From Amoebophrya sp. A120 (taxonomy: Eukaryota; Protista; Dinoflagellata), in contig CAJINV010000003.1 of the NCBI GenBank assembly GCA_905178155.1, positions 956,968 to 1,020,967 on the forward strand: a stretch of 64,000 bases of DNA, read 5' to 3'. The notes beneath the pieces are model-generated. The model saw only the letters and a list, made by a program, of their open reading frames with translations. It made no database searches and was not told where the DNA came from. Position numbers and translations under genes: made by a program. Numbering within the stretch: position 1 is the stretch's first letter; each line of letters opens with the position of its first letter. This document shows positions 23,381-58,031 of the stretch, piece by piece.

Positions 23381-26300
23381 TCATATTGCATGGTACGCAG
23401 TTCCTCCAACTTCAACCCGAGGTGCCCGCACACTCACAAACACGAGAGTGCATATGGCGCCAAACGCGGCGCCCAGAAAGGCCGGGAAAAAAACGCCGTG
23501 CTGGTCGACAAAGGTGGTCCTCGTACTAGTGTGCTCCGCCGAAGCCGCCAAATTGCTGACAGCAGCGGAGGTAATGTGCGTGGTCTCTTTACTATTTTCA
23601 GCTAAGGCATGCTCATGCAGAGGATCTGCACCGGGACCGGCACTAGCTCTCGCAGCTGCTCCACCGGGAGAAAATGATGATCTTCGTGCAGCGACATCCG
23701 ACCGAGATGAGTCTTTCTCTTCCCACATCTTCACAAACTCCTCGTAGGTCGCCGGGTTGAAGGCCGCGGGCAGGACGTACTTGGGATTTGGCACGTCGTT
23801 CGCCCCCGTCATTTCCAAGTAGGCGCTTGGGTAGCCGAGGAAGCTGCCGAGCCCCGTTGCCTCGGTGTTGATGAATCCGCATCCTGTGGAAAAACGTCCA
23901 GCCCAGCACCCACCCAGAGTTGCCATGCACAATCAATGCAGCGAAAAACCTGTCATGCTTGATTCCCACAACCTCTGGATTTGTCTTGCAAAGTTCCCAT
24001 CTTGTTGACAGACTATGTGGTCATGGTGCGGACATTTTTACTCAGGATAACCCGTCGTTGTACTTTACCATCAGCTCGTCCGCAAGGTTATGCATTGCAA
24101 AACCATTGCGCAACAACTAGTAGTCATTGCATTACATGACTACTTACTACTCTACAAATTTGATCGCTTAGCATTACAAATGAAATTTGTTATGCTGCTG
24201 TATTACCTTAGCCAGGAGATTTGTCGTGCATAGATGCAATCACCACGAGTGCGATTCTTTTGCGCAGAGCATAGAGGTCCCACCAGTCCGCTACGACCTT
24301 GTCGTGCAGCTCAGCCTGCGCCGCATCGATCGTGAGCGCTTCGTTCTTGCTGACTTGTGGATGCGTGCGTATAAACGTGTCGATCTTCTGTTCCCAAGAC
24401 CGCACGCGAGGCATAACCTCAAAGTTCATTCACATTCATTTTGCTTTGTAAACATTAAGTATGCCTCTGCTGGTGCGGCGCCAGAGGAGTACAGGTAAGA
24501 GATATTAATGCCTGATGAAATCAATGCTCAGTAGCCTCATCTATGCAAGAAGCCAGCATCGGCTCCTCGTCATTGTACTTCATTTCAATTCAAAAGGAAC
24601 GCACTAAACTATGCGCACAAATTTTCTTCTTTATACATCTTCGTTCTCCATGTGCTCGTAGTTCCATTCCATTAGATTCGCAACGAGATTGAAGGCCCAC
24701 CACGCACTCTTGCGGTCCACCTTCCACCTCGTCCCCCGTTGGAGTGAGGCACCGAGCGCCGCGGAAACCTTCACAGAAGTCGACGTGGGTGCTTGTTTTT
24801 CGTCCTCGTCGTTCAATGTTTTAATTTTCATCTCCGTTGTTCGGCGCAGGTCTTTCTCTTCCGGGACGAACAGGGGCAGGTACACACTGGAGGCGGGGGT
24901 ATCCGGCGCGAACCACCCGCGAGTGGTTTTTGTCAAATCATGTTTGATGTTCTTGCCGGCCTCCTTAAGTTCTGGCTCGGCTGCTGCAAACGAAGACCCA
25001 ATCCACGCGTAGGTGGTCCTGGGTATGGAGATCGCGCGCGCGAATTGCACGTGCATCGCGACCGCGGCGTGCCCCCGCTCCAACCGGTTCGGGCTCTGGA
25101 AGGGCCCCGCGACAACGCCCTTGCGCAGGTCCAGTGGCGTGCCTTCGTAGTGGTCGCGGTGGAGATCCTTCACGGCCTGCTCTGTCAGCTATGAGGGTGC
25201 ACAACGCCCTTTCCCCCTCATTTGTATGGCATGAACAGCAATACAGACACCAGCACACGTGGAGTGTATGCATGACAAATTTATGTACCTAATGAATGTA
25301 GTAGTGTTTGGGCTTCCGTAATTTGTCATGCAAAGCATGCCACAAGGCACCTACACTAGACTACTGGATTTTGGGTTTTGCATGACAAGTGAGGGAGAGG
25401 GAGAGTTGTGTACTCTCATATCAGCTTTCTCGACACCGGGACCGAGAACGGCAGGCGGGTGTTGTCGGTGGGGGGCAGGTTATCAAATGCAAATATGGCT
25501 GGGTCTGGAAGATTTGGGTGTTTGTCATGCAAATTGTACATGACCCACGATGCTTGTGATGCATTCTCTAGCATCACAGCCCTCGCGAAGGCTTTCTCAT
25601 GCCTATCCTGCATGAGAAATGCCCGATCCGGGTGGCACAAATCTGAGCACCTTTTGCTGGTCATGCAATAGAGTTTTTTGTATGATCGAGAGTTAGCATC
25701 ACAAATCCTATTCTTCCAGACCCAGACATACTTGCACTTGATACAGGTCGTGCAGCTGCAGCTCGCGCATCAACCCCGGGTTTACCAGGTTGTACAGCCG
25801 CCAGATGCGCCCGGTGATGTACAAAGGGATGGGCGGGAGTTCCGGAATGTAGTGGAACGACCGCACGTCCTCGCCGAACGTGCTGGTAAAGTCGAAGGGC
25901 GCCGGGGCGTTTTCGTCCTCCTGCAGCGGCGTCCACAGCCTGTTCTCCATCGCCACCTGTTTGATGTTCGCGCTGCACAAAATGTTGTCCTGCTTGGAGG
26001 AGCTGGTCTGTGCAGAACCCGAGGACGACGGGAAAACACACGTCTGGATGTCGCGGATGATGAAATTGTTCGCCACGGTAGCACATCAAAAAAAAAAACA
26101 TTTTTGTGTCTCGGAGGAGAACTCGGTCTGGAAGCAAGAACCGCCATCATGCAGCACGACATGAGTCCTATAGGAACCAGATCATTCAACATCATCAAAA
26201 CACTTTCTGGTCGTGTACTACTACTACTCAGCCGAAGATTACGTTCACGACGTCGACACTAAGTCTAACGCCGCAGACCAAGAATTTCGATTGTTCTTTG

Positions 26301-27803
26301 CGAATCCATTGAATACAGATAGCAGGTGGACGCCATAGAATCCAAATGCATCTTCATGTTCATGCGCACATGCAGAAGTAGGCTCACTAGAAATGAGATG
26401 ATGTTGCAGATGAACAACTCGCGGTCCTACTGCGAGCCGAGCTCCCGGAAAAATGGGGCACGATTCCACCAGAGAATGTCGAGTATGGCGTTCTCAAATG
26501 TTCGTTACATTCTCAGCTGTTACATGATTTGCAATGCAAAAGCACAATCAAAATCGACACGATCAAGCTGCTTCGCATGACAAATTCTCGAAGGGCCCAA
26601 CAGGCTGAGAATCTGTGCCAGATCTGTCATGCAAGACGCGCAAGGTCACCCCTTTCACTTTTGCCATTCTTGCAGCACAAATTCATGTAACAGTTGAGAA
26701 TGTAACAGTTGAGAGCGCCATATCGAGACACACAGATTTGTAATGGACATACGGCGAAGTGGTCGTCTGGCACCCTCTGCGCCGCCCAGACAGCCGATTT
26801 TTTTCCGTTCGACAGGACGTGGAAGATCCACGCTTCTTTGCCGTCAGCGATCTGCAAGGATTCGCCTGCGCCTGGTGGTCCCGGGTCTTCGCCATAAAAA
26901 CCGTGCTTCACCTGACGGTGGGAGAGGGAATTCATGTAGAAGTTCTGACTCGTCTAGTTGTAGACTAACAAGAAAGTGCTTGTTGCTCTTCGTTCCACAT
27001 CCTCATTTTGATTTTTCTCCCGAGGCCGAGCTTTCATCATGACCTAGTATTTATTGCAAATGCAATGCGTTTATGCATATAGTACGAGCGCGAATAGGTT
27101 GGGTTGACACAACTCAAACAACACAACCAGATTGATAAGTACACAAGTGTACTATAAATTGCATCTCTGCTGACTTTCTCCTTCTACTTCTAGTACTTAC
27201 CGCCAAGTCCCCCATGGTGTGGATTGCACACCGTGCTGTCGCACATCGCTCCATTGCGATTTGGGTGAGAATCTTGAGCCCGAACAGGGCCCCGCTCTCG
27301 TAATCCGTAAAGAGTTTCGCGCCGCAGGTGCTTTCGCCGAAGGCGAGCCCCTTTTCGTTCAGCAATCCGTACGCTCCATCGTAGTACCCAAACGTGGTCG
27401 CTTCTGGGTCGGCCTCGATGTACCCAAGGATTTTCGTGACCTTCGTGCTGTCCGCCCGGAGATCCGCCTGGTTGGGAAAGTACATCGGCGCGTCCGCGGG
27501 ATCGGACGTGACCATGCGCGGATAACTCATCAACTGTAGCGGCACAGGACGTTTTCCATCCTTGTACCGGCGGGGCGGCACCCACGTCACCCGCGTGTCA
27601 CAGGTGCTGCAATCCACCGTGTGTGACACCATCGTGTTTCCAAGTTCCGTCGCGTCTCTCCCGATCGCAACGGAGGTGCAGGCCTGGGTGAAAAGCGGAC
27701 CATTCTCACCCCGCAAGAACGCGAGGAAGAATGTGAGCAAGGCAGAAGCAGAACCAGAACGACCCCGTTTGTGGCTCTTGGTTGTACAACGACTGAGCGT
27801 CAT
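23381..27803 (-). CDS. Peptidase C69 (dipeptidase A/secernin-like Ntn hydrolase) with C-terminal TM; exons 27803-27201, 26911-26752, 26075-25744, 25475-25421, 25184-24637, 24417-24274, 24083-24050, 23874-23381 (789 aa)
   Basis: A|CTSVAIGRDAT..MVSHTVD, NEKGLAFGESTC, IAMERCATARCAI, WAAQRVPDDH, RDHYEGT, RAISIPRT, SAWWAFNLVAN; exon sum 2370 nt is divisible by 3; two GT-AG introns plus five TIR/TSD introns. Confidence 0.9.
23880..24049. mobile_element. Introner family D (170 bp) in the C69 gene
   Basis: TIR catcctgtggaaaaacgtcc / tatcctgagtaaaaatgtcc; TSD atccg/acccg; removal gives KYNDG|FINT. Confidence 0.8.
24089..24273. mobile_element. Introner family C, diverged (185 bp), in the C69 gene
   Basis: TAT...ATA ends; TSD aaggt/gaggt; removal gives WWDL|ADELMVKY. 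Confidence 0.8.
25190..25420. mobile_element. Introner family E (231 bp) in the C69 gene
   Basis: TIR tatgagggtgcacaacgccctttccccctca / tatgagagtacacaactctccctctccctca; TSD tcagc; removal gives SRKL|TEQAVKDLHRDHY. Confidence 0.9.
25481..25743. mobile_element. Introner family B (263 bp) in the C69 gene
   Basis: TIR tatcaa(a/g)tgcaa..tg.ctgggtctggaaga; TSD caggt; removal gives HDL|PPTDNTRLPFSV. Confidence 0.9.
26079..26751. mobile_element. Older degenerate introner containing a nested element (C69 gene)
   Basis: TA ends, weak TIR sharing tgtgtctcg, residual duplication cgg; removing 26076-26751 gives DDHFA|VANNFIIR. Confidence 0.6.
26484..26722. mobile_element. Introner family A (239 bp), nested inside another intron
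   Basis: TIR tatggcg(t/c)tctcaa..gttacattctca.ctgttacatg; perfect TSD tcgag (26479-83, 26723-27). Confidence 0.9.
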
Positions 27804-28404
27804 GATGTTAGTTTTAGTTCGTGGCTCAAATATTAAGTAAAAGTTCCGAATAAAAGTTTCGCGACATAATTTCTTCGTGGGAGCAAGCACCCCCGGCGCC
27901 TCGGTGGACGATTGATGACGATGAAAACAGAGATACGACCCTTTGCTTTTGGTCTACTCTATTTGTAGTCTAGTTGTATTAAGCCCGTACGAATAAATGC
28001 GGGCGTGTTGTGAAGTTCAGTAGAAACAAAGGACATTCTGCTCGTTGTTTCAGACATCGACATCGTTTGGGATGAAGATCCTCTGCTACTTTTGTTTTGC
28101 ACCATCATGTGACCGAGTAGTTGTAGCGCCTGTCTTCAGGAGCAGGCTTTGGAAAGAGATCAGTCTGGCGAGGCACGCACGAGGAAGGGCAACACATCTA
28201 AACTTTAACTTTTAAACACAAAAAAGAACGAAAGACTGGACTCCGTGGGATTTTGGAGAAATTTGAATATCAAGTGGCGACATTTCTTCACGAGGGGCGG
28301 GAGTCGTATATATCCTAGTACATGAATGACGGTCATGCTCGAGGACCAACGGGATACATCGATTACTGTCTAGAATTGCGAGTATCTGAACCTCGTCACA
28401 TGGG

Positions 28405-31400
28405 TTACTGTTCAATAAACAGTCGTATCCGACTGAGCACGTTCTTGTTCACCGAGCGTGGCTTCTTGGCCGGGTCAAATTTCCCTTTTGTCCGCTGTTT
28501 TTCCAACATTTTTTCTTTCAAAACTTTGATCCATTCTGCGTCGGTTTTGTGCGGGAAGCGCCTTATCAGGTCGCGCCACGAGCGGAATTCTAGTACCAGC
28601 TGCTCCACCGCCTCCTCCCCGCACTGGTCGATGTGGCGCAACATTCGCCCAAAAATCTGCCGCGTCTGCAGGTCCGCGGTCTTCTTCGCAGTTCGCGCGA
28701 ACTCTTCGTAGGTGTAGTACCCGCCGCCCTCGGTGCCGGTTATTTTATGATGATCTTTTTCTTTGTTCGGAGACGAACTAGGTACCGCAGTACCAACTAC
28801 GTGGCGAGCCTCGACGGGATTAATTGCTACGGCAGATGAAGATCCTGTTTGCTGCTCACGGGGGTCCTGGAGTTTTTGTACGCTTGTCGTCAGGCTCTCA
28901 AGTAGGGCGTGGGTGTGCTCCGGATTTTGCGTCCGACAAACCCGGATTCCGGAAATAAACTGCGTGTGCACCAGGGCCGCGCAGATGGTCGAATGCGGCA
29001 AGCCACGGTCGAAACCGAACTTTTTCGCGCCGCCGGCCTTCATCTCCCAAAAGCACCTTTTGCTGCATTCGACGAGGTAAAAGAGGCGAACGAGGTCCTG
29101 CGGCATTTTCAGAAACCGCCGCTTCTGTTCGTTGTACCGCCCGTCGCGGATACTGGAATCCAAATCCGGAACGGACTTGCGCTCCAGCAGAAAGCCCGCG
29201 AGCAACTCGTTGCTTTCGCTCGCGCCGCCGCCGCGGGGGCTTCCCGTCGCTTTATTGCTCATCTCGTCGTCTCGCCAGATCCAGCACATGTCTCCCAGCG
29301 GCAAAGCGCGCATCTCCGACGTGTCGCTCAGAGATGTGCTCTTGAAAGCGCGCTGCTCGCGGGTGTCCGAAAGCAGCACTAGAGTCTGGTGCGAGTTCGC
29401 TGGCTTCCGGCACCCGCGAAAGTAGAAGCGCGTTGTCCCCTATCGCAACAAAAAAGTGTTACAGTTACACATTGTGTTGCAGGCCAAGCAAGACAGACAA
29501 GCTCTGTCATGCCGGATATGCATAGGAGCCTCGTTTCAGAGGTGTTTTGCCGTAGGATTTCTGCATTACAAGTTTTCTCTCTCATGCAGAGAAATTTGTG
29601 TTGTTGAACTCACTACAAATGTGTAAACTGTATACACTTTTTTCGTGGGATATCCCAGCGGCAGCGGCTCCTGCTGAGGCGATGGACTCCTGCAACGATA
29701 GATGTGCTGGGGAAAAATTGCGGCTAGTTGTAGTTCCCGAGGGAGGTGGTGGAGCCGAGATGTAGCTCTTGTCGACCTTGGCACCAAAAGCAAATCCGCT
29801 GCTGCCCGCAAACTGCGACGTGGTAGTAGAGCTAGAGGCAGCTGCTGTTCTTGCAACTCCAAGAACTCCTGTGGTCACACTCGTCTCCGATGCTATAATA
29901 AGATTTTTGCCTCCAAAGGTAGAACCGGAGGCCGTCGCGGAGGAAAAGAAGGCCGATGAAAAAGTCGCGGAAAACCCTATGACGCGCTCAGGTGTTACAA
30001 TCTCAAGCGCTTCAATAGAAGAGTCTGGATGTTGTATTGCATGACCACGAGCATGACAGACTCGCACAGCACGCGTCATCCACCTTCTGCAATACAAATA
30101 TCGCCAGATTCTAGTAGGGTTTTGGATTCCAGCACAACTTGTCATGCGCAATCCTGTGGGAGTACGTAGGATAGATCATGCATTTCGTTCTTGAATCACA
30201 GAAGATTGCCAGTATTCTCTTGTAACGTTTGAGATTGTAACCGTTTGAGCAGGTCGTAAACCCAGCCTGCTTCGCGGTAGGTGCCGCTGGTGCGGTGGCG
30301 GCGGTCGTACTCGAAAAGCCGGAAATCTGCATCTTCGAACCGGCTGCAACAGCTACTGCGCCAGTTGTGTCATTCATAGGTTGCAACGTCAGCGCGTTCT
30401 GATTGGAAGATGCGGATGCGGTACCTGGTGGTGGTGGTCGCGAGGCCCGTAGACGGGCAATCAATTCCGTCGTGGACGTGGACTATGCATTGCAAATATG
30501 TGTTCTGGGTCTGGAAACTTGTGATGCAAGGAAGGGAATGGTGAGCACACTGTAATGCTACTCCCGCGCTGCCAAGCATGACAAGTTTTTCCGTGGTGGT
30601 GGTTCTGAGTTGCGTATCCCACATGGGAAACTAATTTCATTTTTGCATGACACCAGGCGAGAGGAGCTCATTCCGGCCTCGCAATACAGAGCTCACAGTT
30701 AACATCACATGCCAGACAAGCAGAAGCATGACAGACCTTGTACATCTACCTCCAGACCCAGACATATTTGTAGTTGATATGGACGTTAGAGGAAGCTGAG
30801 CAGCGGGTGATTGAAGCATGGGCGTACCATCAGGGCTCGTGGTCACGTGTGCTCCTGCTGCTTTATCACGATCGGCGGACTGAAAACTAGAAAATGACGC
30901 AGGGTCAGCTGCGTGGTCCTCTGTGTACATACGCCGCTCCAACTGTTGTGCCACCTGTGGCTTTGGAACGAACAGTTCCGCTCCTGGGAGTTGTGGATGA
31001 GAGGTCGGATTCGTAGTTTGATATCCTCCTATTAATGTTCCACTTCCGTGCTGCCGATGCTGTTGTTGCTGAACTGCACTGGAAGTTGTTGGCGCCCCAC
31101 TGGTACTAGGTATCGCTCGCTGGTGCCCAAAACTTGATGTCTGGGGCGGAAAGCCGTGTGGTGCAAAGTTGTAGCTCGTCTGCGGAAAGCCCTGTGGTCC
31201 GCGGTCATTCGACTGGTGCTGTCCGAAGCCCGGCCCAAAGTTGTTCCCACTATGCATCTGCCCGTTGTTCATGAACCCGTTGTTGAGTGCCGGCGACGCG
31301 TTAATATTGTGTTGCTGTTGCTGTTCATCTTGATGCACGAAGCCGAATACAGCACGACCGGTGTTCTTTGGGCCACCAGGCTCGTCTAGTTGCACCTGTG

Positions 31401-33700
31401 GTCCAGACGACGACGTCGGAGGTTGTGGCTGGTGCTGCTCCAGAACGGGGGAAGTGAGAATCATCTGCTCGTCTCCGCTTGCTCCGGGCGCGGCTGGAGA
31501 GAAGTTGTGAAAGTTGTTATTTACCTGCCCGAATGAAGATCCCGCCGCTGCGGAGAAAGCACCACCAGTGCTGCCCACTGGCTGCACGGCCGGAGAGAAT
31601 TGCGACTTTTGTCCAAATGCAGGACCACCACCAAAAAACGCGGGAATGCCACTTCTAGAGGCTGCTGGTCCTGCGAAACCTCCGGTGAAAGACGACGCGA
31701 AGCCAGATGAGGAGGAACTACTAGATGCTACAGTATTCTTGAATCCAATTGCAAACTGCGAGTTCGATGTACTATTTCTTGCAGTCGTGTCGAACGACTG
31801 AACATTGCCCGTTGTGTTGTAGTTGAACTGCGAGAACTGTGAGGACGCAGAACGCTGCGGCTGCAAATCGGTATGATCAACGACATGGTTGGCATTATTC
31901 GCATGATTCGCACTTTTGAATTTGCTCACGCTCGTTCCTGTTCCTGACGCGGCCGCAGAGTTCGTCAGACCCGCACCAGAAGGCTCGAACGAGGTCCCCG
32001 AAGGGGCCGCTCCCCCGCGTAAAGGGCCTTTTACTACGACCGGAGCCAGAAGCCGTTCGACCAAGCTAGCAGTGCTTCCAGAAGCAGGTGCGGCTGGTGG
32101 GGCTCCTGCGGTCGGTCCATCATTTCCGTTTCTTTCAACTCGCATTCGCTTCAACGGCGGTGGTTCCGCCGCATAAAACTGCGAGGAGGATGACGGGGCA
32201 GCAAGAGCTACACTCGACGTTGAGCTCCCGGATGTTGAACGGAAATTATAGTGCGGGTCAGTTTGTTGTACCAGTTGGGATGAAATGCCAATGCGCCGCT
32301 CCTCTTCTTCCGCGAGTGATAGCTTGATGGCCCTTTGAAGGTCCTCTTCCTCACGTGCGGCAGCTGCAGCAAGGCCCACCACGTAGTTCTGATTTCTGTC
32401 ATCGAGTTGAGGTGGAACAAGTGGAACTACACCGACACCGTCTTCTTGCTGGACCACATTTTTAAGGCCGTCGTCGTGGTCTACTGCTTTATCAACAAAT
32501 AACTATCAAATGCAAAAGTGTCTGGGTCTGGAAGAATGGATGTTTGATGTCATGCTTGTCTGGCGTGACTCTTGAATCTGTCATGCACGTTACCCAAGCG
32601 CTCCACTTTTCTGTCATGCAGGAACGCAGTTTGTCATGCAGAATAGGCAACACCTAGAAGCGCAGAAACTTGTCATGCTGGGCCAGCACTTGCGGCCTCA
32701 TCATGGTACGCCACCCAGCATCACAAGTTTTCAGACCCAGACATTTTTGCATTTGATAATAACGGCGGTGCGACGAGGAAACCTCCACCATCGTCGGAAG
32801 ACGAGGAGGTATCTCCGGCCTCATCCTCTTCCGAGTTAAAGTCTTCTATCAAATGTAAAAGTGTCTGGGTCTGCTGGAAACTTGTGATGCTGTGTGGCGT
32901 ATCATGAGGAGGCCACAATTGCTGGCTCAGCATGACAAGTTTCTGAGCTTCTAGGTGTTGCCTATTCTGCATGACAAACTACGTTTCTGCATGACAGAAA
33001 AGTGGGGCTCTTTGGTAATGTGCATGACAGATTTAAGAGTCATGCCAGACAAGCATGACAAACTAGCATTCTTCCAGACCCAGACATTTTTACATTTGAT
33101 ATCTTCGTCCTCCGTACCATTATCCTCCTCATTCTCCGAGGGCACGACCCCGGACACCTGACTGTCGGGACCAGGACGAAGAACCGCAGTAGATTTAATA
33201 TTTCGCTTCTTAGAAGAGCCCCCTGCTCCGGTCGTGTTCGGCTGAATTTCCCCGGATTCCACGCGTCGCTGGAGGTCCTGAACGTTCGCGCGACCCAGCA
33301 GCAGCTCGGGGTCGTTCTTGAGCGCCTTTGTGAGCCGCGCCTTCACTTTAGTTCGCCACTTTCGCAGCTGCTTGACGCTCTCCGCAGCACCATCGGAGGA
33401 AGTAGAAGTTGCGGCGGCACCATTGTTCATCTTGGCGGACGAGGCCGTCGCTTTATTTTTATCGTGCAGAACCCGCTCGAAGTCCGCAGAAAAGGTCTTG
33501 CCCACACCCGTCAGCCACTGGGCTTGCACGCTGGTATCCAAGGCGAGAGGGTAGGCTTTCAAGCTCTTCACCACACCCCGGACGTTTCTCTTGGCGTCGT
33601 AACTGACGGCCCCCTTTTCCTCAAAGTGCGCGAGGAAAGCCGCATTTGCGGGGTGCGTGCGAACATTCATCTGAGCGGCGTTTTTCTTTTTCGAGGACAT
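28405..33700 (-). CDS. MUS81: Structure-specific endonuclease MUS81; exons 33700-33102, 32841-32759, 32498-30780, 30478-30259, 29972-29653, 29435-28405 (1323 aa)
   Basis: N-terminal HhH (PANAAFL..KSLKAYPLAL..WLTGVG); ERCC4 domain VLLSDTRE, LPLGDMCW, LLERKSVPDLDSSIRDGRYNEQKRR, FYLVE; C-terminal QIFGRMLRHIDQCG; exon sum 3972 nt is divisible by 3 after removing five introners. Confidence 0.9.
29441..29652. mobile_element. Introner family F (212 bp) in MUS81
   Basis: TIR tatc..a..aaaaaagtgt..aca; TSD tcccc/tccca; homologous throughout to 56436-56656; removal joins into VLLSDTRE. Confidence 0.9.
29978..30258. mobile_element. Introner family A, diverged (281 bp), in MUS81
   Basis: TIR ta(t/c)gac..gctca...gttacaatctcaa; TSD aaccc; in-frame join AGF|SATF. 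Confidence 0.8.
30484..30779. mobile_element. Introner family B, diverged (296 bp), in MUS81
   Basis: TIR containing caaatatgt..ctgggtctgga; TSD tggac; in-frame join. Confidence 0.85.
32504..32758. mobile_element. Introner family B (255 bp) in MUS81
   Basis: TIR tatcaaatgcaaaa.tgtctgggtctg; TSD ataac; in-frame join PPL|FVDKAV. Confidence 0.92.
32847..33101. mobile_element. Introner family B (255 bp) in MUS81, opposite orientation to 32504-32758
   Basis: TIR tatcaaatgtaaaa.tgtctgggtctg; TSD tcttc; join EDED|FNSEED. Confidence 0.92.
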
Positions 33701-35032: not shown

Positions 35033-38000
35033 AAAGTGGTCCCGGCTGATCGTGCCGCCGCGGCCGCGCGTCCGTGCCACTTTGCGGCCGCGTATCATGA
35101 GAGTGCACAACTCCCCCTCCCCCTCATTTGTGATGCAAAATGTCTAATTTACACCTTGCCTCTGGGCACTGTTAGCATGACAAGTTCTCGCAGCCCAAAT
35201 AGCACTACACTCCTGTCCAACTTTGTCATGCAAAACCTGTATTCTTGCTGACGCTTGTATTGCCGTTCATGCAACACAAATGAGGGGGAGGGGGAGTTGT
35301 GCACTCTGATACCGCGCTCGATCAGACGCGAACCGTTTGGCTCGATCAGACGCGAAGCGTTTCTCTCTGCTCCCTGCTCTTCGTGTCCTCTCAGTGGACT
35401 GGGTGTTGATGGTCTCCTGCTCCTCTCCGGCTCCTCCAGCAACTAGTACATCAGTACCCACCAGCACATCTGGATCCAGACCACCCTCCACCTCCTCACC
35501 AGCTTCATCTGCGTGTATTTTTGGCGCGGCTGGCCGTTCTGTCTCCTGCAAATAATATCCTTCCCTCCTCAGCTCTGGGACCGCATGCTCGTAGAAAAAA
35601 GCTCCCCAGGATCGCACGCCTGTGGACTGTTGGAAGTTCGTTCTCCACCCAATCCTCCTCGATGGTCGTGTTTGCCTTTGCTCAAGTACTCCTCCAGTTT
35701 GCGTCTCCAAGGCTCTGCCAGCGGTACTCCTCCGGTTTGCGTCTCCAGTCCAAGCAGCACTTACCACCGGCCCCAACGCGAGATGGACGCTATAGGCCCT
35801 CCGCAGCTTAGCGGCGACCTCAGGCGCATGATTTTTATGTGCTTCCTTTATTACTTCCAGGTACTTTTTCGCCTGTTCGACGACGAAGCTGAGTAGCTTT
35901 ATGTAATTCGGCTTGCCTTTCTGCCGTGTCACGGTTGAGAGCAAAACTCTTGAGGCGCGAAAAGTGCCAACGTCTTCATCAGGGTTTAGGCCCAGCCAAG
36001 CATCGTAACGCAGCAACGTCATGTCTTGGCTTCGCTCTCTGCCCTCTCTTCTTGGCTCAGCGAGCCCCGGACTCGGATGCGATAGCTGCCTCCTCGACGA
36101 CGACGCTCCAGGAGCACCAGCAGCCGGCGCAGCATCTTCAGGCCCTGGATCATCGCGCACTACCACTAACTCGAGTTCTCTATGTGTTGCTCTACTAGGT
36201 GCATCTTCCCTGTCTTTGTCTTCCTCCACATGATTCGCGGCAGGCCGCTCTTTGTAGTACGTGGTGTTGATGGTCTCCTGTCCGGTTGCGCCGTGCTCCT
36301 CCTGATCATCTCTTTCTCTGTGTCCGTTCGCAGCGTTCTTCTCAGTCGTCGATCTGGCTTCCTGCTCTCCAGCCGCGCCACCAGCCGACAGCACACGACC
36401 ACCGCCCTCAGTCTGCGCTGAGTCGCCAGTCGTTCTTGATGGGGGAGATCCCCATCGCCATCCCGACGTCGTTGAGAGGGTCGGCGTTTCGCTTCTTGAT
36501 GTCGCGCAGCTGGTAGCGACCAGCATCTTCTGATGATCTTGATCATGACATGCATCATCATCGACTCCCCCGCGCGCTCCTCGTCTTCTAGCTCTACGTG
36601 CACGACGACCCTCCTCCTCTTCCTCAACATGACTCTCAGCGGCCGACGCGTGCTCCTCACAGCTTGTAGAAGCTGCTTATCGTGCTTCTCCAACTAGTGC
36701 ATCAGCATCCACATCACCTGGATCCGGAGTGCCCTCCACCTCCTCATCTTCTGCGTGTTGCAAATCATATCCCTCTGCCGTCAGCCTTGGGAGTACATGG
36801 CCGTAGAAAAACTCTCCCCAGGATTGCACGCTTGGTATCGCCTGTCGGAAGGTCCGACTCCCGATCGACTTCGTGTTCGTCACTATTCCTTCTTGCTTTA
36901 CTGCCTTTTGCGATGCCATGGCGTTTCCCCAAGCTTTCCTTACCAGCGGTTTCATCGCGAAGTAGACGCTACGGGGCCTCCGCAGCTTAGCGGCCACCTC
37001 TGGCGCATGATTTTTATGTGCTTCCATTACCACTTCCAGGTACTTTTTCGCCTGTTCGACGACGAAGCTGAGTAGCTTTATGTAATTCGGCTTGCCTTTC
37101 TGCCGTGTCACGGTTGAGAGCAAAACTCTTGAGGCGCGAAAAGTGCCAACGTCTTCATCAGGGTTTAGGCCCAGCTCCGAGGCATCGTAACTTTTCAATT
37201 TTTTGTCTTGGTATTGCTCTCTGCCCGTTCTTCTTATTGGCTCAGCGAGCCCCGGACTCGGATGCGATAGCTGCCTCCTCGACGACGACGCTGCAGGAAC
37301 ACCAGCAGCCGGCGCAGCATCTTCATTTTTCCGCAGAGGAAAATATCCTTCCGCCGTCAGCGTTGGGACCACATGGTCGTAGAAAAATTCTGCCAAGAAT
37401 TGCACGCGTATCGACTGCTGGCAGTTCATTCTGGCAGCTCTAGTACAACGCCTCCTCGCGAAATGCGGGCCCCAAGCCTTGTTCACGAGACGTTTCACCA
37501 CGATGTAGACGACCAGGGGGCTCCGCAGCCCGACGGCGCCCTCGGCCGCAGGGTTTCTATGTGCTTTCATTCTCCACCAGTATTCTTTCGCATATTCGAC
37601 GGCGAAGCTGAGCAGCTCTTCGTAATTCGGGTAGATATAATTATCGGGCTGTTCTTCCCAGTCGGGCCGTGTCACGCTCATATCAAATGCAAAAGTGTCT
37701 GGGTCTGGAAACTTGTGATGCTGGGTGGCGTATCATGAGGAGGCCACAAGTGCTGGCTCAGCATGACAAGTTTNATGTAATTCGGCTTGCCTTTCTGCCG
37801 TGTCACGGTTGAGAGCAAAACTCTTGAGGCGCGAAAAGTGCCAACGTCTTCATCAGGGTTTAGGCCCAGCTCCGAGGCATCGTAACTTTTCAATTTTTTG
37901 TCTTGGTATTGCTCTCTGCCCGTTCTTCTTATTGGCTCAGCGAGCCCCGGACTCGGATGCGATAGCTGCCTCCTCGACGACGACGCTGCAGGAACACCAG

Positions 38001-45300: not shown

Positions 45301-45649
45301 TCGAAAATTCAGCTTTTTGTTTTTTACTTGTCGATGTCGATAGGGCCTTATTTTTTTTTTGAATCAAAATGGATGAAGAAAGTTGAAGGTGAAGTTGTAA
45401 CTGCTGCTCCAGGGATTTGTGTTTCTGCTCTTTTTATCTCCTTCTAGCTCGGTCGTCTACATAATTGTGGGTAACACATTTTTAGCACAATTAGCCCTGG
45501 TGCGTATAATTGATTCGTCTTGAAGTTTTTTCTCAAGGTAAGACTGCTCTCTTGTATAATGGTAGTTGTAAGCAAGAAACGAGGCAACTTTTGCTCCTGT
45601 GCCTGATAATTTGTTGAATAAACTAACCCTCCATTTTTCCGCAGACTTG

Positions 45650-48474
45650 TTACTGCACCGTAACAACTTCTTCCACCACTTCCCCCTCCTTCTCGACCTT
45701 CTCGATGAATGCCTCCAGTGTGGGGGTTTTTGCCTTTTCCGCAGACGAGGTCGCTTGTTCCGCACAACTGGCTTCTTCCTCCACCTTGCTCGCTTCAACA
45801 TCTTCATGCCCGGCCGCGGCGACGCCCGCCTCGGCCGCTTCGCCTTCGGGTCCTTCGCCCGCATCTTCGACTTGTTCCTTCTTCTCCTCTTCCTCTGCAG
45901 AAACGCTCGACGTGGTGGCAGGCACGGCACCCGCGGCGACCTCGGCCGCCCGCGCGGGCGGACTGAGGATGTCCGCCGCGGTTTCCTCCGGAATGACGGA
46001 TTGCTTGGAAGACATGACCGACCCGCCGAACAGGCTGGAGAACTTCTTGTAGGCGGCCACGTCCTTCAACGGCTTGCGCACGAAGGACGCCATCCGCTTA
46101 TGAATTACAAAAGTACTAACGTACTAGGATAAATTGCAATACAAGTTGGCTCAGCATTTTTTCAAATTTAATTTGTAATGCGGAGTTGCCTTAGGAGCTA
46201 GTATTTGTAATTATACAAGAGGTGAACACGCTCCACACGTAAAAGGTTAAGCTTGTCGCTTTTCGCTTCTTTGTCTTTCTATTCGCGCTGTAACGTTACA
46301 CTTGGGGCCTTAACGTTACACTTGGGGCCTAATGCATAAATGCAATTAGTACGAGTACGATACTTTTGCGCAGGATACCGCTTCGCCCGACGCGATTTCG
46401 GCGACAGCACCGGGGCCGCGTCCTCGTCCTCCTCGGCCGTGGTGGTCGCGGCCTCCAGAAACGCGGTGGACGCCGGCTTCGTCTTGTTCGAGGGCGGTCC
46501 CTCGCCCGAAGACGCTTCCTCCGCACTTGCCGACGCCGGCTTCTTATCCTGTGCAAAAGTATCGCACTCGTATTGCAATCATGCATATACAAATCTTTTT
46601 GTTTTTGTTAAGTCAAATACGCAGTACAAATTTTATTTCTCATGCTGAGGAAATTTGTAGTGCATTTATACGAGTACGAGACTGTTGCACAGGATACTTC
46701 TCGCTCGCCGCTTCGTCCGCACTGGAGCTGCTCGGTTGGCTTTCCACCGAACTCTTGGATCCCTTGTTGTTGGTGCCAGTCTCTTGCAGCTCCTTCGAAT
46801 CCTTGCTGGCCCGTTTCGAACCCTGGTATGGAATGGATTGCGGATTTTTGGTATAATTGGGAGTTCTTGATGAGGTTGAGGGAAACTAGCAGAGATAACA
46901 TCAAGTTTAGCTGTTTTTATGCTGCAGTAGAGCCGGAGATCGCTCACGCGCGACGCTGCTCCACGTTTTGAGCAAACGCGAACAGCAGCAGCGTTCACAC
47001 TCTATTGTTCTTTTGAAAAAGATATTGGAATACATCCAACCAGTTTGGACGTAAAAAAAAACAGAATCTTGATCTTCAACTTCACCTTGTTTGGATTTAG
47101 AAGCAACAGATATAAAAGAAATTCTTTTTGTACCGGCTTGGAGCCGTTCCCCGGCTGCGCGGTTTTGTTTTGCGCGGCGACAGCACCCTGGTTCGGGCGG
47201 GTCTGCTTCATCTGGCGGCGGGTCTGCTTCTGCTGGCTGTTCGCGTACTGCTGCAACTTTTGGTCCTCGGAGGATTTGGAGGAAGACGCAGCTGCCACGC
47301 CGGCCGCTGGAGTTGCTGCCCCCGGACCAGCGGTCGTGGCGTCCCGGCTCTCGCGGGTACCGCGGTACTTGAACCGCCAGGTGTTCCGCACCACTGGGCG
47401 CACGCCATTTCCATTGTTGGTGGTGGCCTTGGACAGGTCGTGGTGGCTGGAAGCCGCTGCAGGAGCTCCGGACTGGTCATAGAACGAACCGTGCTTCATC
47501 ATGCCGCGGTAGTGGTCGGACTTTTCTTTGCTGCCGTTACGCGAGGTTGACCCCGGCGGCCCATGATAGGAACTACTACCGTACCCGCCGTAACTGTAGC
47601 CGTAGTACGAGTCGTAGCCGCCCGCCGGCGCGCCGCCCCAGGCATGATGCGGTGGTCCCGCCGCGGGGGCTTTGCTCCCGGGGGGCGTGTATCCAGTGCT
47701 CGCGGTACCGCGCTGCGTCCACTGCTCACCGTGATACCAACTGGCCATCGGATCCATCCACGGGCCGTGGTTCGGATCCACGATCACCACCGGAGAGGTC
47801 GTCGGCTGCGGATGCACCATCACGGGCGCCGGGGGCGGAACGGGGACGCGGGACGAGTGTTTATGGCGTTCTCAGACGTTACATTCTCAACTATTACATG
47901 GATTTGTCATGCAAATTAGCCATGAATATCGACACGACCAAGCTGCTTCGCATGACAAGTTCGCGACTTGCTAGATAGCATGAGAATCTACGCCAATAAA
48001 CCTGTAATGCAAAAGGCGCAATCTTTTTTTTTTTTTTTCAATTTTGCCACTCTTGCATTGCAAATTCATGTAACAGTTGAGAATGTAACATTTGAGAATT
48101 CCATAGTTTTCCGCGGTTCCTTTGGAGCTGTGCGACGTGGTCGTGCCCGAGAAGGGGTGCGCCGGTTGGTGCACAGCCGCTCCTGCCTGCGGGTGCGGCG
48201 GCATCGGCGCGACAGCCAGGTACTGCGGACCACCCGCCGCGCCGGCGAAGAGGTGGTGCGCGGAGGTCCCGAACAGATTCGGGTCCAAGGCCAGATACTG
48301 ACTCTCATGGTACAACGGTTGATGGTGCGTCGCGGCAGCAGTCGTGTACACCAGCTGCGGGTGGTGCATCAGTACCTGGTGATGGTGGCTCGTCGGGCCC
48401 GCAACGCCCGGGGGCGGCATCAACACCTGCGGAGCCGCTGGTACCATCTGGTGCACCGCCGGCGGTGGCGGCAC
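45650..48474 (-). CDS. Hypothetical low-complexity (Pro/His/Gln-rich then acidic) protein, 5' end incomplete; exons ..48106, 47856-47134, 46885-46697, 46539-46378, 46093-45650
   Basis: In-frame joins after removing three introners and one GT-AG intron (46886-47133). Confidence 0.65.
46099..46377. mobile_element. Introner family C (279 bp, with an internal 20-bp tandem duplication at 46291-46330)
   Basis: Ends tatgaattacaaaagtac / tatcctgcgcaaaagtatcg; TSD ccgct; join AKR|MASFVRK. Confidence 0.88.
46545..46696. mobile_element. Introner family C (152 bp)
   Basis: TIR tatcctgtgcaa.agt.tcg.actcgtat; TSD cttct; closely similar to 56231-56387. Confidence 0.92.
47862..48105. mobile_element. Introner family A (244 bp)
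   Basis: TIR tatgg..ttctca.a.gttacattctcaact.ttacatg; TSD gtgtt/gtttt; join AEN|SSRVPVPP. Confidence 0.9.
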
Positions 48475-49459: not shown

Positions 49460-49618
49460 CTGCCGCAGGTCCGACAAAATGTATCGGAATTGACGGTGCT
49501 ACTCCGACAAAATCTGTCGGAAGCCAAGGGAGCTTGATCATTCTAGCGCGAGGCGATGAAAATCACTTGGTCCGACTAGCGCTAGTACATCGAGTTGTAT
49601 TTCAGTTTGTCCGGTTGG
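49460..49618 (-). repeat. Duplicated fragment of the MRM2 3' end and 3' UTR (copy of 55146-55304)
   Basis: 41-nt identical core agcgctagtacatcgagttgtatttcagtttgtccggttgg plus shared hairpin tccgacaaaatctgtcgga. Confidence 0.85.
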
Positions 49619-52498: not shown

Positions 52499-54209
52499 TC
52501 ACGCCGGCACGACTGGCTCGAACGCCGGGACAGGGAATTCCACCTCGGACCAGGGCAAACGCAAACTGGGGGCCGCGTTCAGGTCGGCCGCTTCTTCCTC
52601 GACCGTTTGCTCCTCGAGGTCACGGTCCGTCGATACGTCCGATCCGTCCCCCTGCCCCGGGTCCTGAGCGGGGCTTCTGGAAAGGATGTGCAACAAGGCC
52701 TTGATTTCGCCCGCCGCGACCGTCGCCATGGGGGCGAACATGGCAAGCACCTCCCAAGGTGGTCCACGGTCATGTTTTTTGTCTACTTGTTGGTCTTGCG
52801 CGCCCTTTCCCGGGGTAGTTAATGTGGTAACAATGAAATCCTCATCCGCCGCCCCGGTGGATAAGCCGCGACAGGCGGGCGCGGGGGCGGGGAGAAATAA
52901 CCTCCATGAACTGGCTCGGAACCCGCATCGGCATCGTCTGGGTGAGCCCGATCGACCCCGGGTAGACACACAACGAACAGCAACACGCCAACGCCATTGG
53001 TGTTTGCGATTTTGTAAAAATAATACGCAGGACATTGCAAAGCGCACTATCGTCGGACTTGGTCGAGAGTAGAGGTACACGGAGATAAATGATAGCTAGT
53101 TTTTGCAGTTGCAGCATAGCAAATTCTGAGTGTCTGCGGATACCGTCTGTTTTCAGCATGAGAAAAATGTTTTCCGCGTTTCTTTGTGTTTACAAATACA
53201 AACCCCGCGAGGCTTTTGCGTACTATGCTCTGCAAGTCGTTAGGTTCGTTTTCAGATTTTTCGCCGTGCATGACAAACACCATTCGGGCAATTTTGTTTA
53301 GCTTTCCGAGCGATTGTTCGATCCGAGTGCATGGCATTTCCAAATGTCCAACATATCACTTCAAAAGAACCACAAATCCAGCTGGCACGGCGTGTGTCCG
53401 TACCGAGTCAATCCGAGCCATCCAGACGAGGGTGGTGCTGAGCGGCAAGCTCATAGATGCTACTTCATCGGTCGCGGTAGTACGGCCTGCCAGGGGATAG
53501 TCCTCCGGGGGGGTACTTCCTTAGTTATCCAACGGGGGAGCGGACAAGGATTTCGTTTTCATATCTTGACCCGGGTCTTCTTTTTGTGTGAAGTTTCCTG
53601 TGATAGTCGTGAGCAACAATTTTGGAAACTTTCAAGAGGTTACGATCCTCAAACGTAGCGGGGTGTTACCAATTGAAAATTCCAGCACTGCGCGTATATT
53701 GGGTTAATCTGTCATCGTGCAAACGAAAATCCATCAGGAATGCAGCATCGGTCTTCTTCTTTCCTTCATCGTGTTTGCGTTCTCATCATGTAGTTGCTTG
53801 CTTCTAGGTTTTGTGCGTACGATGCTATTGCGCTACAACGAGATGCGTACTACGATGGTCCGAGTAAAGTTGTTCTGTACGAATACTTTTACTCTTGCAT
53901 TCAAACAGAAATCAGATGAACGTCAATACCGGTGCTCATCTGGTCCACCTGCGTCTGCGTCTTCCGGATCTTCTTGTTCTTGTCCACCTGCATCAGCGAC
54001 GTTGATTTCGCCACCTTCTGCGCAGGAGTGCCCGCCTTCGCGCGAGCCCGCGACCACTTGTTCGCCTCCTGCGTGGCCTTGCCAGTGACTTCATTCCCTT
54101 CCCACACGTGCGTGCCGGTGGGCTTCTTCTGCAGCGCCACAACACGCCCCCCCCCCCCCCCGAGGAGGCAGGTCGTGGCGGCGATGGCCAGCAACTTACT
54201 TTTCGGCAT
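52499..54209 (-). CDS. Hypothetical multi-exon protein(s); exon structure unresolved
   Basis: Signal-peptide-like start MPKSKLLAIAATTCLL, GT donor near 53928, GC3-rich terminal exon 52499-~52765. Confidence 0.4.
53048..53355. mobile_element. Degenerate introner-like element
   Basis: Ends tatcgtcggacttgg / tatgttggacatttgg, partial duplication cac(t), internal gcatgacaaa and gcatgagaaa motifs. Confidence 0.5.
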
Positions 54210-55267
54210 GATTTGACGTGTACTTGCGCGACAGTTTGAAGCTGTCTAGCGGACTACTCGCGAGGAGAAAGCAAGTTTTTATGTCCGAAGCGACAGCGAA
54301 GTAGTGTTCAAAAAACGGGGAAGAACTGTTCTAGTCAGTTAAAGATTACACGGAAATTCCAGATGGTGCCACAAGCCAACGAAGTGAATTTTACCAGGAG
54401 CAAGGAGGAAGCTTACATCCGCTTGCAACGCAGTCTACCAGTTGCAGTTCCGCCTCGTTCGACGAAATGCACGATAATCAAATATCGAGGCGGGACGAAG
54501 TGGCACGATGAAGATCCCTAGGCTTTTTGAGTCCAACTCCAACCCAAGAACGTGCTTCATCATAGTATTTGTCAGGGACAAAACTCACTTACCAGCCGGA
54601 TGCTGACGATTACGAATTGCTCTACGTGCGTGGAGATTTTCTTCCAGAGCAGACAGATCCATACGATTGCGATTAATACGAGGAAGACGGGAATTTCTAA
54701 ACGAGCAGTACGAGAGGGAGAGTCGGAGTCCTCATACGGTATAATAATTTTCGTTTCCACCAATGAACGAAGTTCACAAAGTCACGAGTGAAGGTCAGAG
54801 GGTTCTCAGCTGCCGGTCAGTTGTACGACTACATTTAACATTTGCAGTGCCTCGGACGAAGGGTAAGGATGCTGACGAACGAAATGACATCTACCGCAAA
54901 GGCCATTTTATTTGCAGGCTGTAATCGATAGAATGCAGGGGGGTCTGTTTCACGACAAACCCAATCAGGTTAGCGTTGGAGCGCTTCTATAATGTTTTAT
55001 TTCATGTTGAAAAACGCGCTATGGGCTTTAGATAGAAATGGCCGGCTGTTTCTGCCGGATAACGGCAAGATGAAAGGAGCTGCCACGTTTAGAGCCGTAG
55101 CCGTTTGGTCTTGGTGACCTCATTACATACAACTGATCGTTAGATCTGCCGCAGGTGGTTCGACAAAGTTTGTCGGAACTGACGGCGCTACTCCGACAAA
55201 ATCTGTCGGAAATCGAGGGAGCTTGATCCTAGCGCGAGGCGACAATCTTCAGTACCTGGACGCAGCG

Positions 55268-58031
55268 CTAGTACATCGAGTTGTATTTCAGTTTGTCCGG
55301 TTGGTATCCCGGCAGCGTCTGCACCGCCGCGGCAATGCTTTCCCGGCCGACAAATTTGCTGCAGACGAAGAACATCTCCCGCGACTCGTCGCGGCTCGCG
55401 GGCGGTTTGAAGGAGTGCACCGTTTTGAAGCGCGAGCGCAGGTACATTTTGAAGTTGGTGGTTTCCGGGCCGTACATCATTTTCACCACGAAGCTGCCGT
55501 CCAGCCGCTATCCTATGTAAAAACGTCCTCGCCCCATAGTCAAGATGGGGAATCGGCTAGACAAATCCACAAGTTTTGGCTGTCTTGCATGACAAATTGC
55601 GATTCGTAGTGTAGTGCTGTTTGAGCTAGCTCAGCAGCATCACAGATCTAGCGCCTCATGCGGATTGGAGCATGACAAATTGCAAAACACGAATAGCAAA
55701 CGCTTCTCATGGGGCTCCGCATGAGAAACATTTTCAGCATGCAGATTTGCATTGCAACTATGGGGTGGGGACGTTTTCAAATACGATAGCCGCAGCACGC
55801 GCTCCATCATTTCGCCCGCCGCGAGGCAGAGCTCCGCGGATATCCTAAGTAAAAACGTCCCCACCCCAGAGTTGTAATGCAAATGCGCAATGACAGGAAC
55901 ATTTGTAATGCGCATCCCCATGAGAGGCATTTCCAATCGTGATTTGGCATTTGTAATGCTGTAAACAGGATGAGAAACTGGCTTTCTTATGCGGCTCTCC
56001 TTGCTAAGCACCACTATACTACAGACGGAAACTTATCATGCACAACTCCCAAAGCTTGGCGATTTGTGTTGCAGATTTACCAACTTGACTATGGGGTGGG
56101 GACGTTTTTGCTCAGGATAGCGGAATCCAGGTGGTCGTCCTGCTTCACGCCGGTGAGGCTGGGACACATGTCGGACAGCACCACGTCCACCTTCTCGCCG
56201 TTGGTGGCCCGCAGGATCTTCTCCAGCGTGTATCCTGTGCAAAAGTATCGTACTCGTTTTGCAATCATGAATCACAAATCTTTTTCTGAGCCTGAAGGTA
56301 AATCAGCATCACAGATCTTCATCTTATTTCTCATGCTGAGGAAATTTGTAATGCATTTATACGAGTACGATACTTTTGCAATTCATAGCGTGTCCGCTTT
56401 CGTGACGTCGCCCTGGATAAAGACGTGCCCCTGGTTATGCACAGAAAAAAGTGTCACAGTTACACATTGCGTTGCAAGACCAGCAAGACAGACGACTTCT
56501 GTCATGCGCAAAATGTTTGCGAGTGTCGTTTCGTGTGTGTTTTGCTTTATGATCTCTCCATCACAAGTTTTCTCCGTCATGCGAGGCAAATTGAAATTTG
56601 TGATGCTGAATTCGCTACAAATGTGTAAAAATTGTATACACTTTTTTCCTTGGATACTGGTCGTCCAAGGGATCGATGTGCAGCAAGTCCTATCGTAAGG
56701 AAAAATCCCCCCTCCCCATATCGAAACGGAATGTTTCCGAAAATTTGTGTTGCTGATTTGAGCCTTAATTCCACCTGATATCCGTAGGCCTCGTTGGGGG
56801 TCCCTCACCCCCAACACGCCGAACTTCCTCCTTCCACACGCAGCGTCGGAGGGGTCGCACGTAGCCCTGGAGGTGATAACGAGGGTGTTGCTGATTTGAG
56901 GCCACAAATCGCATTTGTCTTGCAATAAGACAAGGGTAGAAGCTTCCGCCCCATTAGGGAGGCGATTTGTCATGCTGTTGGCCCTAAAAGTGGCCCGCTT
57001 GCCATGCTGAAGAACTAGACCCATACGCCCCTGCCTAGCCTGGGGATCTGGCCGCAGTGCCTCTCTGCAATACAAACCTGATTTGTGTACACACATCCAG
57101 CATCAGAAATTCCGTTTTGATATGGGGAGGGGGGATTTTTCCTTTCGATAAGTCCACGCCAATCACCTGGGCGTGCCTCCGCGCCTCTTCGTCGGCGTCG
57201 TCCGCCAGCACCGTGCGCTCCAGCGCCACCTGCGACCAGCCCCCCGCGTAGCAGCCCAGGTCCAGGATCTTCTGGCCCTTCCGGAAGATGCCAAACCGCG
57301 AGTCGATCTGCTTCAGCTTGTAGGCCGCGCGCGTGAGGTATGGGGTTCTCAAACGTTACACTCTCAACTGTTACATGATGAATTTGTCAAGCAAAAGCAC
57401 CATCATCATTCACGCGATCAGGCTGCTTCGCATGACAAATTTGCCTAGGGCTAAATAGCACCTAAATGTGTGCAGAATTTGTAATGCTACAGGCGCAATC
57501 TCCCCCCTTTCACTTTTCCCATTCTTGCATCACAAATCCATGTAAGAGTTGAGAATGTAACAGTTGAGAACGCCATATCCGGTAGCTCTCGTTTTGGGCA
57601 CGCTTCACGTACCGGTCCGCCATCTGTCGCTGGACCCACTGGTGCACGTTGGAGGAAATGGACGAATTCTTTGACCTTCCGCTCAATTTCCCAAACCCGC
57701 GGTGACTCTGGGCGACGTGGGGCGGAGGTCGTTCTTGTGGTTGCCGCGAGTGATCGACGATGAAGAGTGGCTGAAAACAGATCCGTCGTGGTGTAGTAGT
57801 CGGGCGGCAATTTGGTGACGTTGACAAGTGCCTGGGTGTTCTTGTAGATGTAGTGGTCGTGTGTCTCATCATGATGTTGTGGCGGGCACCGGAACATAAG
57901 GTGGCAACAGCTGGAGCCACGCCATTCGTGCATGGTAACGGTGTCGTCCCGAATGGGGTCGCTGTGCAGTAGAGCTGGGAAACACAGCTCGTGGCCGCCC
58001 TACTCGTCGATGTTCCTGCAGCATGTGTCAT
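55268..58031 (-). CDS. MRM2: rRNA large-subunit 2'-O-methyltransferase, RlmE/FtsJ family, MRM2-like; exons 58031-57578, 57333-57151, 56685-56657, 56430-56388, 56225-56120, 55835-55789, 55503-55268 (365 aa)
   Basis: Reconstructed QWVQRQMADRYVKRAQNESYRTRAAYKLKQID, ILDLGCYAGGWSQVA, IGVDLLHIDPL, FIQGDVT, VDVVLSDMCP, GSFVVKMMYG, KPPASRDESREMFFVC (K-D-K-E tetrad); exon sum 1098 nt; start codon tentative. Confidence 0.9.
55509..55788. mobile_element. Introner family D (280 bp) in MRM2
   Basis: TIR tatc.tat...aaaacgtcc.c.ccccatagt; TSD gccgc. Confidence 0.92.
55841..56119. mobile_element. Introner family D (279 bp) in MRM2
   Basis: TIR tatcct.ag.aaaaacgtccccacccca; TSD gcgga. Confidence 0.93.
56231..56387. 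mobile_element. Introner family C (157 bp) in MRM2
   Basis: TIR tat....tgcaaaagtatcgtactcgt; TSD gcgtg. Confidence 0.93.
56436..56656. mobile_element. Introner family F (221 bp) in MRM2
   Basis: TIR tat.ca..gaaaaaagtgt..aca..ttacacatt; TSD ctggt. Confidence 0.92.
56691..57150. mobile_element. Introner family G (460 bp) in MRM2
   Basis: ~41-bp TIR tatcg(t/a)aaggaaaaatcccccctccccatatc(g/a)aaacggaa; TSD agtcc. Confidence 0.93.
57339..57577. mobile_element. Introner family A (239 bp) in MRM2
   Basis: ~55-bp TIR tatgg(g/c)gttctcaa..gttaca.tctcaact.ttacatg; degenerate TSD tgagg/tccgg. Confidence 0.9.

Follow-up and report, generated by a model that had tools for sequence, protein, structure and literature searches.

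The introners of Amoebophrya sp. A120 were found to carry an internal array of a short motif, GCATNACA, the copies of which obey common rules of spacing to one another and of phasing to the element ends in families most of which cannot be aligned with one another. On balance we favour the reading that the motif is a double-stranded DNA site of a shared mobilising protein, with the termini being what is read on RNA for splicing. The DNA analysed is a stretch of 64,000 nt (the window; contig CAJINV010000003.1, positions 956,968 to 1,020,967), supplemented with loci from a second assembly. The introners themselves were already known, and it is the internal motif grammar, i.e. the spacing together with the end phasing, that is novel here.

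Identity and anatomy of the elements

Twenty-one elements, totalling 5,176 nt, were delimited in the window without reference to the motif, either by terminal inverted repeats (TIRs) and target site duplications (TSDs), as for the element with f0-type ends at 46099-46377, or by joints in RNA contigs. They are 150-460 nt long, start with TAY, end with RTA and are flanked by a 5-bp duplication. A sequence-only reading of the same DNA had described families with unrelated TIRs. Most families indeed fail to align, but TAY…RTA and the 5-bp TSD are common to all element ends, most have an A-tract at positions 11-14, and three pairs of family consensuses can be aligned over 74-158 nt at 68-73% identity. 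The same reading had the feature begin at 25190, and although the range that it cited does hold the feature, elements are already present at 23880 and 24089.

The elements with TAT…ATA ends and a 5-bp target duplication are introners of the A120 type, 29,850 of which were detected in A120, amounting to 17% of the assembly (Farhat et al. 2021; PMC7789003). Section 11 of that paper gives the signature as TAT, seven variable bases and an A-tract; published and window elements are alike in these features and also in having a short direct repeat, non-canonical borders, a length of about 240 nt and many families. The signature, as an inverted repeat, was recovered at the window ends and in the terminal profile of 504 elements, where TAT was built into the search and the A-tract was not (0.79-0.92 A at positions 11-14). 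With regard to the direct repeat of 3-5 nt that borders A120-type introners, 230 of 318 calls made from TIRs only have a perfect 5-bp repeat, three have a 4-bp repeat and none has a 6-bp repeat; the TSD is without GT or AG bias. Removal from mRNA at non-canonical sites, also characteristic of the type, is evident from 11 joints and from the open frames that are restored. Being short, non-coding, of high copy and bounded by TIRs and a TSD, the elements additionally conform to MITEs. Run X6, which behaves as DNA in that depth is flat over unique sequence, has a very high summed depth in element bins (6,000-145,000 against about 22-72 elsewhere), although this is not a copy number. Rfam returned no match at the gathering score within 23400-58000.

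Enrichment of the motif in introners

The window contains 69 matches to GCATNACA, 34 on the forward and 35 on the reverse strand. Sixty of these lie within the 21 elements (11.6 per kb) as opposed to nine in the other 57,943 nt (0.16 per kb), whereas 500 dinucleotide shuffles of the elements gave a mean of 1.8 and a maximum of 7. An 8-mer count conducted blind to the motif placed GCATNACA top by number of elements (16 of 21, with three copies outside). The contrast in motif rate between introners and the rest of the window or canonical introns is therefore as the sequence-only reading had predicted, and all 11 positions at which it had located the motif do hold it, each lying either inside a reverse match or no more than 1 nt from where a forward match starts. 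Its remark that the motif is missing from GT-AG introns is also accurate, with no match in six canonical introns (1,573 nt; the three that it had named and three more), albeit that zero represents background, about 0.25 matches being expected. A single weak match to the fitted matrix was observed in the canonical intron near 8526, the 5' boundary of which is only rough. The further claim that all families carry several copies holds for the fitted matrix, which has at least two matches in each of the 21 elements, but not for the strict motif, which is present at least once in 20 of 21, exactly once in three, and absent from the f0 introner at 46545-46696 (three matrix matches).

Four of the nine matches outside elements belong to two further copies, namely a truncated f1 copy at 37681-37774, which ends at an assembly N, and a decayed f9 copy at 38717-38930 (89% to consensus, right end degraded). 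A near-exact tandem duplication of 37076-37774 and about 37775-38450, joined at the single N, truncates the f1 element and is possibly an assembly artefact. Three matrix matches at about 53090-53330, where ends are unclear, possibly mark a decayed element.

One pattern scan of a second assembly, in which the same families occur, yielded 140 loci (731 kb, partly overlapping), comprising 485 non-overlapping elements in 38 clusters. Since these extra loci, all from the one assembly, were picked with the pattern of cluster f0, counts are family-weighted or consensus-based. As a control, the element detector made three calls in 370 kb of locally shuffled sequence. The motif was present in 469 of the 485 elements, in 32 of the 38 clusters and in all 13 clusters with at least three members, with a fitted consensus of tGCATNACAAATT and about 4.5 copies per element, compared with 0.09 in shuffles. 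Judged by sequence comparison the families are not fully independent, some alignable stretches being held in common. The same termini, 5-bp TSD, motif and spacing rules nevertheless recur across mostly non-aligning families, in keeping with the earlier suggestion that they constitute one system.

Spacing and phasing of motif copies

Among same-direction pairs of motif copies up to 110 nt apart in the family consensuses, 21 of 67 are spaced by 31-33 nt, and such pairs occur in 13 of the 14 consensuses; random placement (5,000 rounds) gave a mean of 2.5 and a maximum of 9. Three turns of the DNA helix correspond to 31.5 bp. The spacers between these copies differ in sequence and have little in common. 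A set of 24 singletons, several of which are chimeras of known families, showed the same spacing in 10 of 41 pairs (null 1.9). When all pair distances are pooled a lattice of about 16 nt is apparent. Copies that face outward are found at 36-38, 45-48, 56-59, 64-67 and 76-79 nt from the terminus in the consensuses (Rayleigh 11.4 at period 10, a value reached in none of 5,000 nulls), so that the periodicity from element ends proposed for scrutiny by the sequence-only reading is indeed present, with a period near 10 nt. Phasing in the singletons is weak (p=0.018) and peaks at period 11, and helical periods of 10 and 11 cannot be cleanly told apart.

Elements in the window obey the same rules. Pairs 32 nt apart are centred at 25242/25274 in the f4 introner at 25190-25420, which has a 5-bp TSD and an outward copy 37 nt from the end, at 25526/25558 in the f1 introner at 25481-25743 (outward copies 46 and 44 nt from the ends) and at 29476/29508 in the f2 introner at 29441-29652. 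The f1 introner at 32504-32758 has a pair 33 nt apart (32582/32615), while those at 32847-33101 and 38376-38634, also f1, each have pairs of 33 and 31 nt. Three copies 30 and 31 nt apart are present in the f3-like introner at 23880-24049, two pairs of 31 nt in the f3 introner at 55841-56119, and pairs of 32 and 33 nt in the f5 introner at 56691-57150; in the f6 introner at 47862-48105, outward copies are located 47 nt from both ends. A motif repeated near both ends with constrained spacing, as observed here, is the pattern of a subterminal array, and transposase-binding arrays of this sort are found in the hAT element Ac, CACTA elements and Sleeping Beauty.

Selection on the motif core

Selection was estimated with a leave-one-family-out matrix and one ancestral rule for all sites, from 277 copies of clusters f0-f7 that each have two close neighbours. 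Private substitutions were observed at 218 of 8,151 core sites (0.027), 621 of 10,586 interior sites (0.059) and 72 of 1,057 sites at the N position (0.068), and at a rate of 0.017 in the terminal three bases. The motif core is under purifying selection. The TSDs of the same copies mismatch at 62 of 1,385 positions, counted over two copies, and since core decay is close to TSD decay per copy, the data are compatible with selection in the donor followed by neutral decay. Selection in jumping copies and neutrality after insertion is accordingly a compatible, as opposed to a proven, account. By one estimate, in which site choice is biased, core decay is no higher in older copies, i.e. those with a TSD mismatch (0.017 versus 0.022), whereas a second estimate by copy age has it rising from 0.094 through 0.113 to 0.140. 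A search for insertions with shared flanks, orthologous or paralogous, that might serve as a post-insertion clock returned only one near-identical pair.

Splicing and the cut register

Contigs X1-X4, which derive from one sample and are RNA by guess, and in which two GT-AG introns are skipped too, join across ten element-type introns in 23400-37700; the X1 contig also skips the f6 introner at 47862-48105, giving 11 joints from this one sample. Among the elements concerned are those at 23880-24049, 25190-25420, 25481-25743, 29441-29652 and 32504-32758, together with an f10 introner at 29978-30258, one end of which is TAC, and an introner with f1-type ends at 30484-30779. Splicing restores frames of 834, 1,338 and 289 codons, the first in a host gene stretch at 23400-28039 (minus strand) with five introner-type and two GT-AG introns. 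The introner at 32847-33101, opposite in orientation to that at 32504-32758, is without a listed RNA joint, and the 1,338-codon frame stays open on its removal. Similarly, removal of six introners opens the frame of an FtsJ-like methyltransferase gene at 55290-57700 (minus strand), which has Pfam PF01728 in two exons. This gene contains two f3 introners in opposite orientations at 55509-55788 and 55841-56119, the f5 introner, and three called from TIR and TSD at 56231-56387 (f0), 56436-56656 (f2) and 57339-57577 (f6). The strict motifs of 55509-55788 are antisense to the mRNA, and the loose end of X5 at this element matches the downstream exon.

Since the 5-bp duplication allows most joints to slide, their position is restricted by mismatched or decayed TSDs, such as the mismatched TSD of the introner at 24089-24273. 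For ten of the 11 joints, the only common register places the cuts, read along the transcript, 1 nt upstream of TAT and 4 nt downstream of ATA. This -1/+4 register is the sole one possible, there being no repeat, at the joint of 26080-26752 (minus strand), an old, decayed introner-type intron with no TSD left. A younger f6 introner (26484-26722) is nested in it and the two are removed as one 673-nt intron, indicating that nesting is tolerated. At 35093-35311, an f4 introner, the 3' TIR has a 3-nt insertion and the cut falls 3 nt short, adding one codon in frame; this cut is at +4 from the ungapped helix register, and the one case is suggestive of a ruler that counts from the TIR helix. Reverse-transcriptase template switching is an unlikely source of the joints: a repeat is lacking altogether at one of them, those with mismatched TSDs agree on a single register, and reading frames are recovered.

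With the cut 1 nt before TAY, the intron starts N-U-A-Y; the four canonical intron starts compared are GTAY in three cases and GTAA in one. A nearly invariant A is located 7 nt before the 3' cut and might, at a guess, be the branch point. In group II introns the branch is 7-8 nt from the 3' end.

Orientation of motif and termini with respect to transcription

A codon model assigned a confident transcript strand to 287 of 470 elements, and in 130 of 133 instances neighbouring elements agreed. Element orientation relative to the transcript was random in every cluster large enough for testing, including cluster f3, the strict motifs of which are nearly all one-directional (10 of 19 copies with the transcript). 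The 287 oriented elements contain 626 sense and 677 antisense motif matches, and core decay is equivalent in the two (86/2,809 or 0.031 sense; 77/2,880 or 0.027 antisense; p=0.38); for copies in non-coding context the figure is 28/1,117. Transcription does polarise the termini, in contrast to the motif. Of 321 oriented copies, none has a changed first T at the 5' end and eight have one at the 3' end, while a change at position 3 was seen in 13 copies at the 5' end, nine of them to C, versus two at the 3' end (binomial p about 0.008 and 0.007, respectively, computed by hand). Since terminal polarity was detected by the same test, the test has power, and it places RNA-level constraint at the ends as opposed to the motif; the absence of sense or antisense bias in the core argues against a strand-specific splicing signal. 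Transition spectra were strand-symmetric. An excess of G·U over A·C in TIR pairs (329 versus 272, p=0.02) is weak and from non-independent copies, and is not counted as support.

A candidate mobilisation site and its alternatives

It seems likely that the motif is a protein-binding site, as the sequence-only reading proposed. Of the transposase, splicing and chromatin roles that it entertained, a subterminal site of the transposase type fits best, the binding being putative, whereas a strand-specific splicing mark is at odds with the even split between sense and antisense copies. The array would then act, in double-stranded DNA, as an auxiliary binding site of one mobilising protein, either a transposase or its cofactor, which would bind sites on one face of the helix and help to pair the two element ends. 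Staggered insertion would leave the 5-bp duplication. The host then removes the element plus 5 nt from pre-mRNA with the -1/+4 cut seen in the RNA contigs, and appears to do so by reading the termini rather than the motif. TIR positions 4-10 and 15-30 could be free to diverge, as it would be TAT, the A-tract and the array that are recognised. TIR positions 4-13 are closer to the motif than shuffles are; however, of the 28 consensus ends only one reaches the score of a real motif, which counts against a mobilising protein.

A more specific version, which we hold tentatively, is a two-layer system in which a TA..TA transposase with a 5-bp TSD would read the phased GCATNACAAA array, and the host would splice by a ruler held by the TIR helix, with N-UAY at the start and the 3' cut set 7 nt downstream of an obligatory adenosine that may be the branch point. 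If true, N-UAY would amount to a GUAY site whose first base is free, every insertion would be spliced in either orientation, and the element, having a universal splice code of its own, would not depend on the target for GT or AG.

Neither a coding element, such as one with an IS3- or integrase-like DDE transposase, nor an autonomous partner with matching ends was found in the 731 kb of the second assembly or in the window. Long TIR-bounded candidates (19 rows) likewise revealed no binding protein or autonomous element, and 11 ORFs from L008 and L029 were without a significant Pfam match. Four candidates (L008:505-1608, L029:6184-6998, L040:820-1791 and L050:8358-9505) were rejected, having the appearance of ordinary introners with inserted cargo. 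L008:505-1608 and L050:8358-9505, and also L017 near 2490-2760, combine two TIR families with the same cargo (87% over 543 nt), which is probably a further mobile insert targeting introners; the L008 cargo ORF has no Pfam match. L029:6184-6998 is an 815-nt f6 element, close in size to the published A120 families fam38 and fam196 (about 810 nt). A portion of its insert is also present in L013 (98% over 190 nt), and Pfam gave no integrase match for the element. A scan of viral contigs for spaced pairs gave three AT-rich matches with no element-like context by eye, taken as chance.

An unlikely alternative is that the motif acts in RNA as a strand-neutral scaffold, in which inverted copies fold the interior and bring the ends together for non-canonical splicing. 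Inverted copies do pair with each other in the predicted folds of 13 of 14 consensuses, so a symmetric role in RNA structure is conceivable; predicted interiors are more stable than shuffles in all 14, and a symmetric signal would be required by an element that has to be spliced in both orientations. Yet consensus f13 has same-direction copies only and no motif-motif pairing, pairing leaves the 31-33 nt spacing of direct copies unexplained, and core decay is not raised in non-coding context. Moreover, the 400-nt 3' part of 26080-26752 has no matrix match and the intron is nevertheless spliced exactly, although the nested element does keep its motifs. It is also improbable that the motif is bound by a host DNA-binding or chromatin protein, with a role in nucleosome positioning, co-transcriptional marking of introns or silencing. 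Strand neutrality and helical phasing would suit any binder of double-stranded DNA; however, with the motif at background outside elements there are almost no native host sites in the window, and the phasing is counted from the element's own ends, as a cleavage complex would need.

A functionless ancestral repeat, spread by internal duplications and end swaps, would account for the alignable stretches in some families and for the termini common to all, but is already largely refuted and very improbable: the core accumulates substitutions at less than half of the rate of the interior, which is not so of the N position, and the spacing has persisted through turnover of the spacers. A strand-specific RNA signal, either branch point or splicing enhancer, can scarcely be credited, for although the elements are spliced without GT-AG and the TNAC core resembles (in sequence only) the branch-point consensus yUnAy, neither motif number nor decay has a sense bias, outward copies number 157 at the 5' end versus 145 at the 3' end with no 3' bias, and introners of cluster f3 undergo splicing in either orientation (23880 and 55509).

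Comparison with known systems

The available portions of the text, supplement text and legends of PMC7789003 describe no internal motif, spacing rule or fixed register, although its figures S19-S25 may bear on the point; the legend to its Fig. 3 has splice sites variable relative to the hairpin, whereas the register here is fixed at -1/+4. Motif, spacing and fixed register were likewise not found in the available portions of PMC12130899, PMC11282704, PMC12005148, PMC10045372 and PMC11707139, nor motif strings in 13 of the 14 supplements of PMC12130899. No entry listed by literature searches describes the motif, and the 15 of 75 matches listed by one of them are unrelated by title.

In PMC12130899 (Gozashti et al. 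2025) the A120 families are mostly 'TIR DNA, unknown', with fam38 given as 'Ginger, 5-bp TSD, TA/TA termini' among 41 of the 58 A120 rows. Families there are of diverse origin with TSDs of 2-6 bp, whereas one TSD length and one motif unite those sampled here. TA..TA termini and short TIRs are shared with IS3EU/GingerRoot, and the TNT..AYA signature and short TIRs of IS481EU also resemble the present elements; TSDs are usually 6 bp in the former and about 4, 15 or 25 bp in the latter, as against 5 bp here (PMC10045372). Membership of IS3EU/GingerRoot is therefore not claimed, the termini agreeing and the TSD length not. Subterminal arrays of transposase sites have precedents in other transposons, with piggyBac and piggyBat having repeated short motifs in both orientations near their ends at defined spacing, as here (PMC11707139). 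Binding in those arrays is proven and family-specific, whereas here one motif accompanies divergent TIRs and binding is putative; the present elements, unlike transposons with subterminal arrays, are also perfectly spliced introns. The nonconventional introns of euglenids are alike in being MITE-like, with a TIR hairpin, TSD-like repeats and non GT-AG borders, but have a CAG/CTG terminal signature, and no such internal array is described in the portions available (PMC11282704).

Section 16 of PMC7789003 reports no transposase in A120 and argues against general mobilisation by a transposase, and the paper poses the questions of how introners are mobilised with no known transposase and how splicing proceeds in the absence of GT-AG and U1. 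A conserved, spaced motif offers a defined bait for the mobilising protein and a signature for autonomous elements, while the -1/+4 register and polarised termini lead to exact predictions on splicing chemistry. The results for motif and termini together separate jumping signals from splicing signals in an element whose insertion into exons does no damage.

Other features of the window

A long gene on the plus strand at about 590-9160, by eye similar to a SNF2/RAD5-type helicase with a RING finger, has GT-AG introns only and no introners. Upstream of the first gene are a 108-nt inverted repeat with 1 nt between its arms and, following it, three copies of a ~38-nt unit (63-279 and 334-448). Positions 14000-15900 form an AT-rich island (GC 0.31-0.34) unlike the remaining window. 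Two pairs of direct repeats noted by eye, 34360-34660/34690-35030 and 49450-49620/55160-55305, are unrelated to introners.
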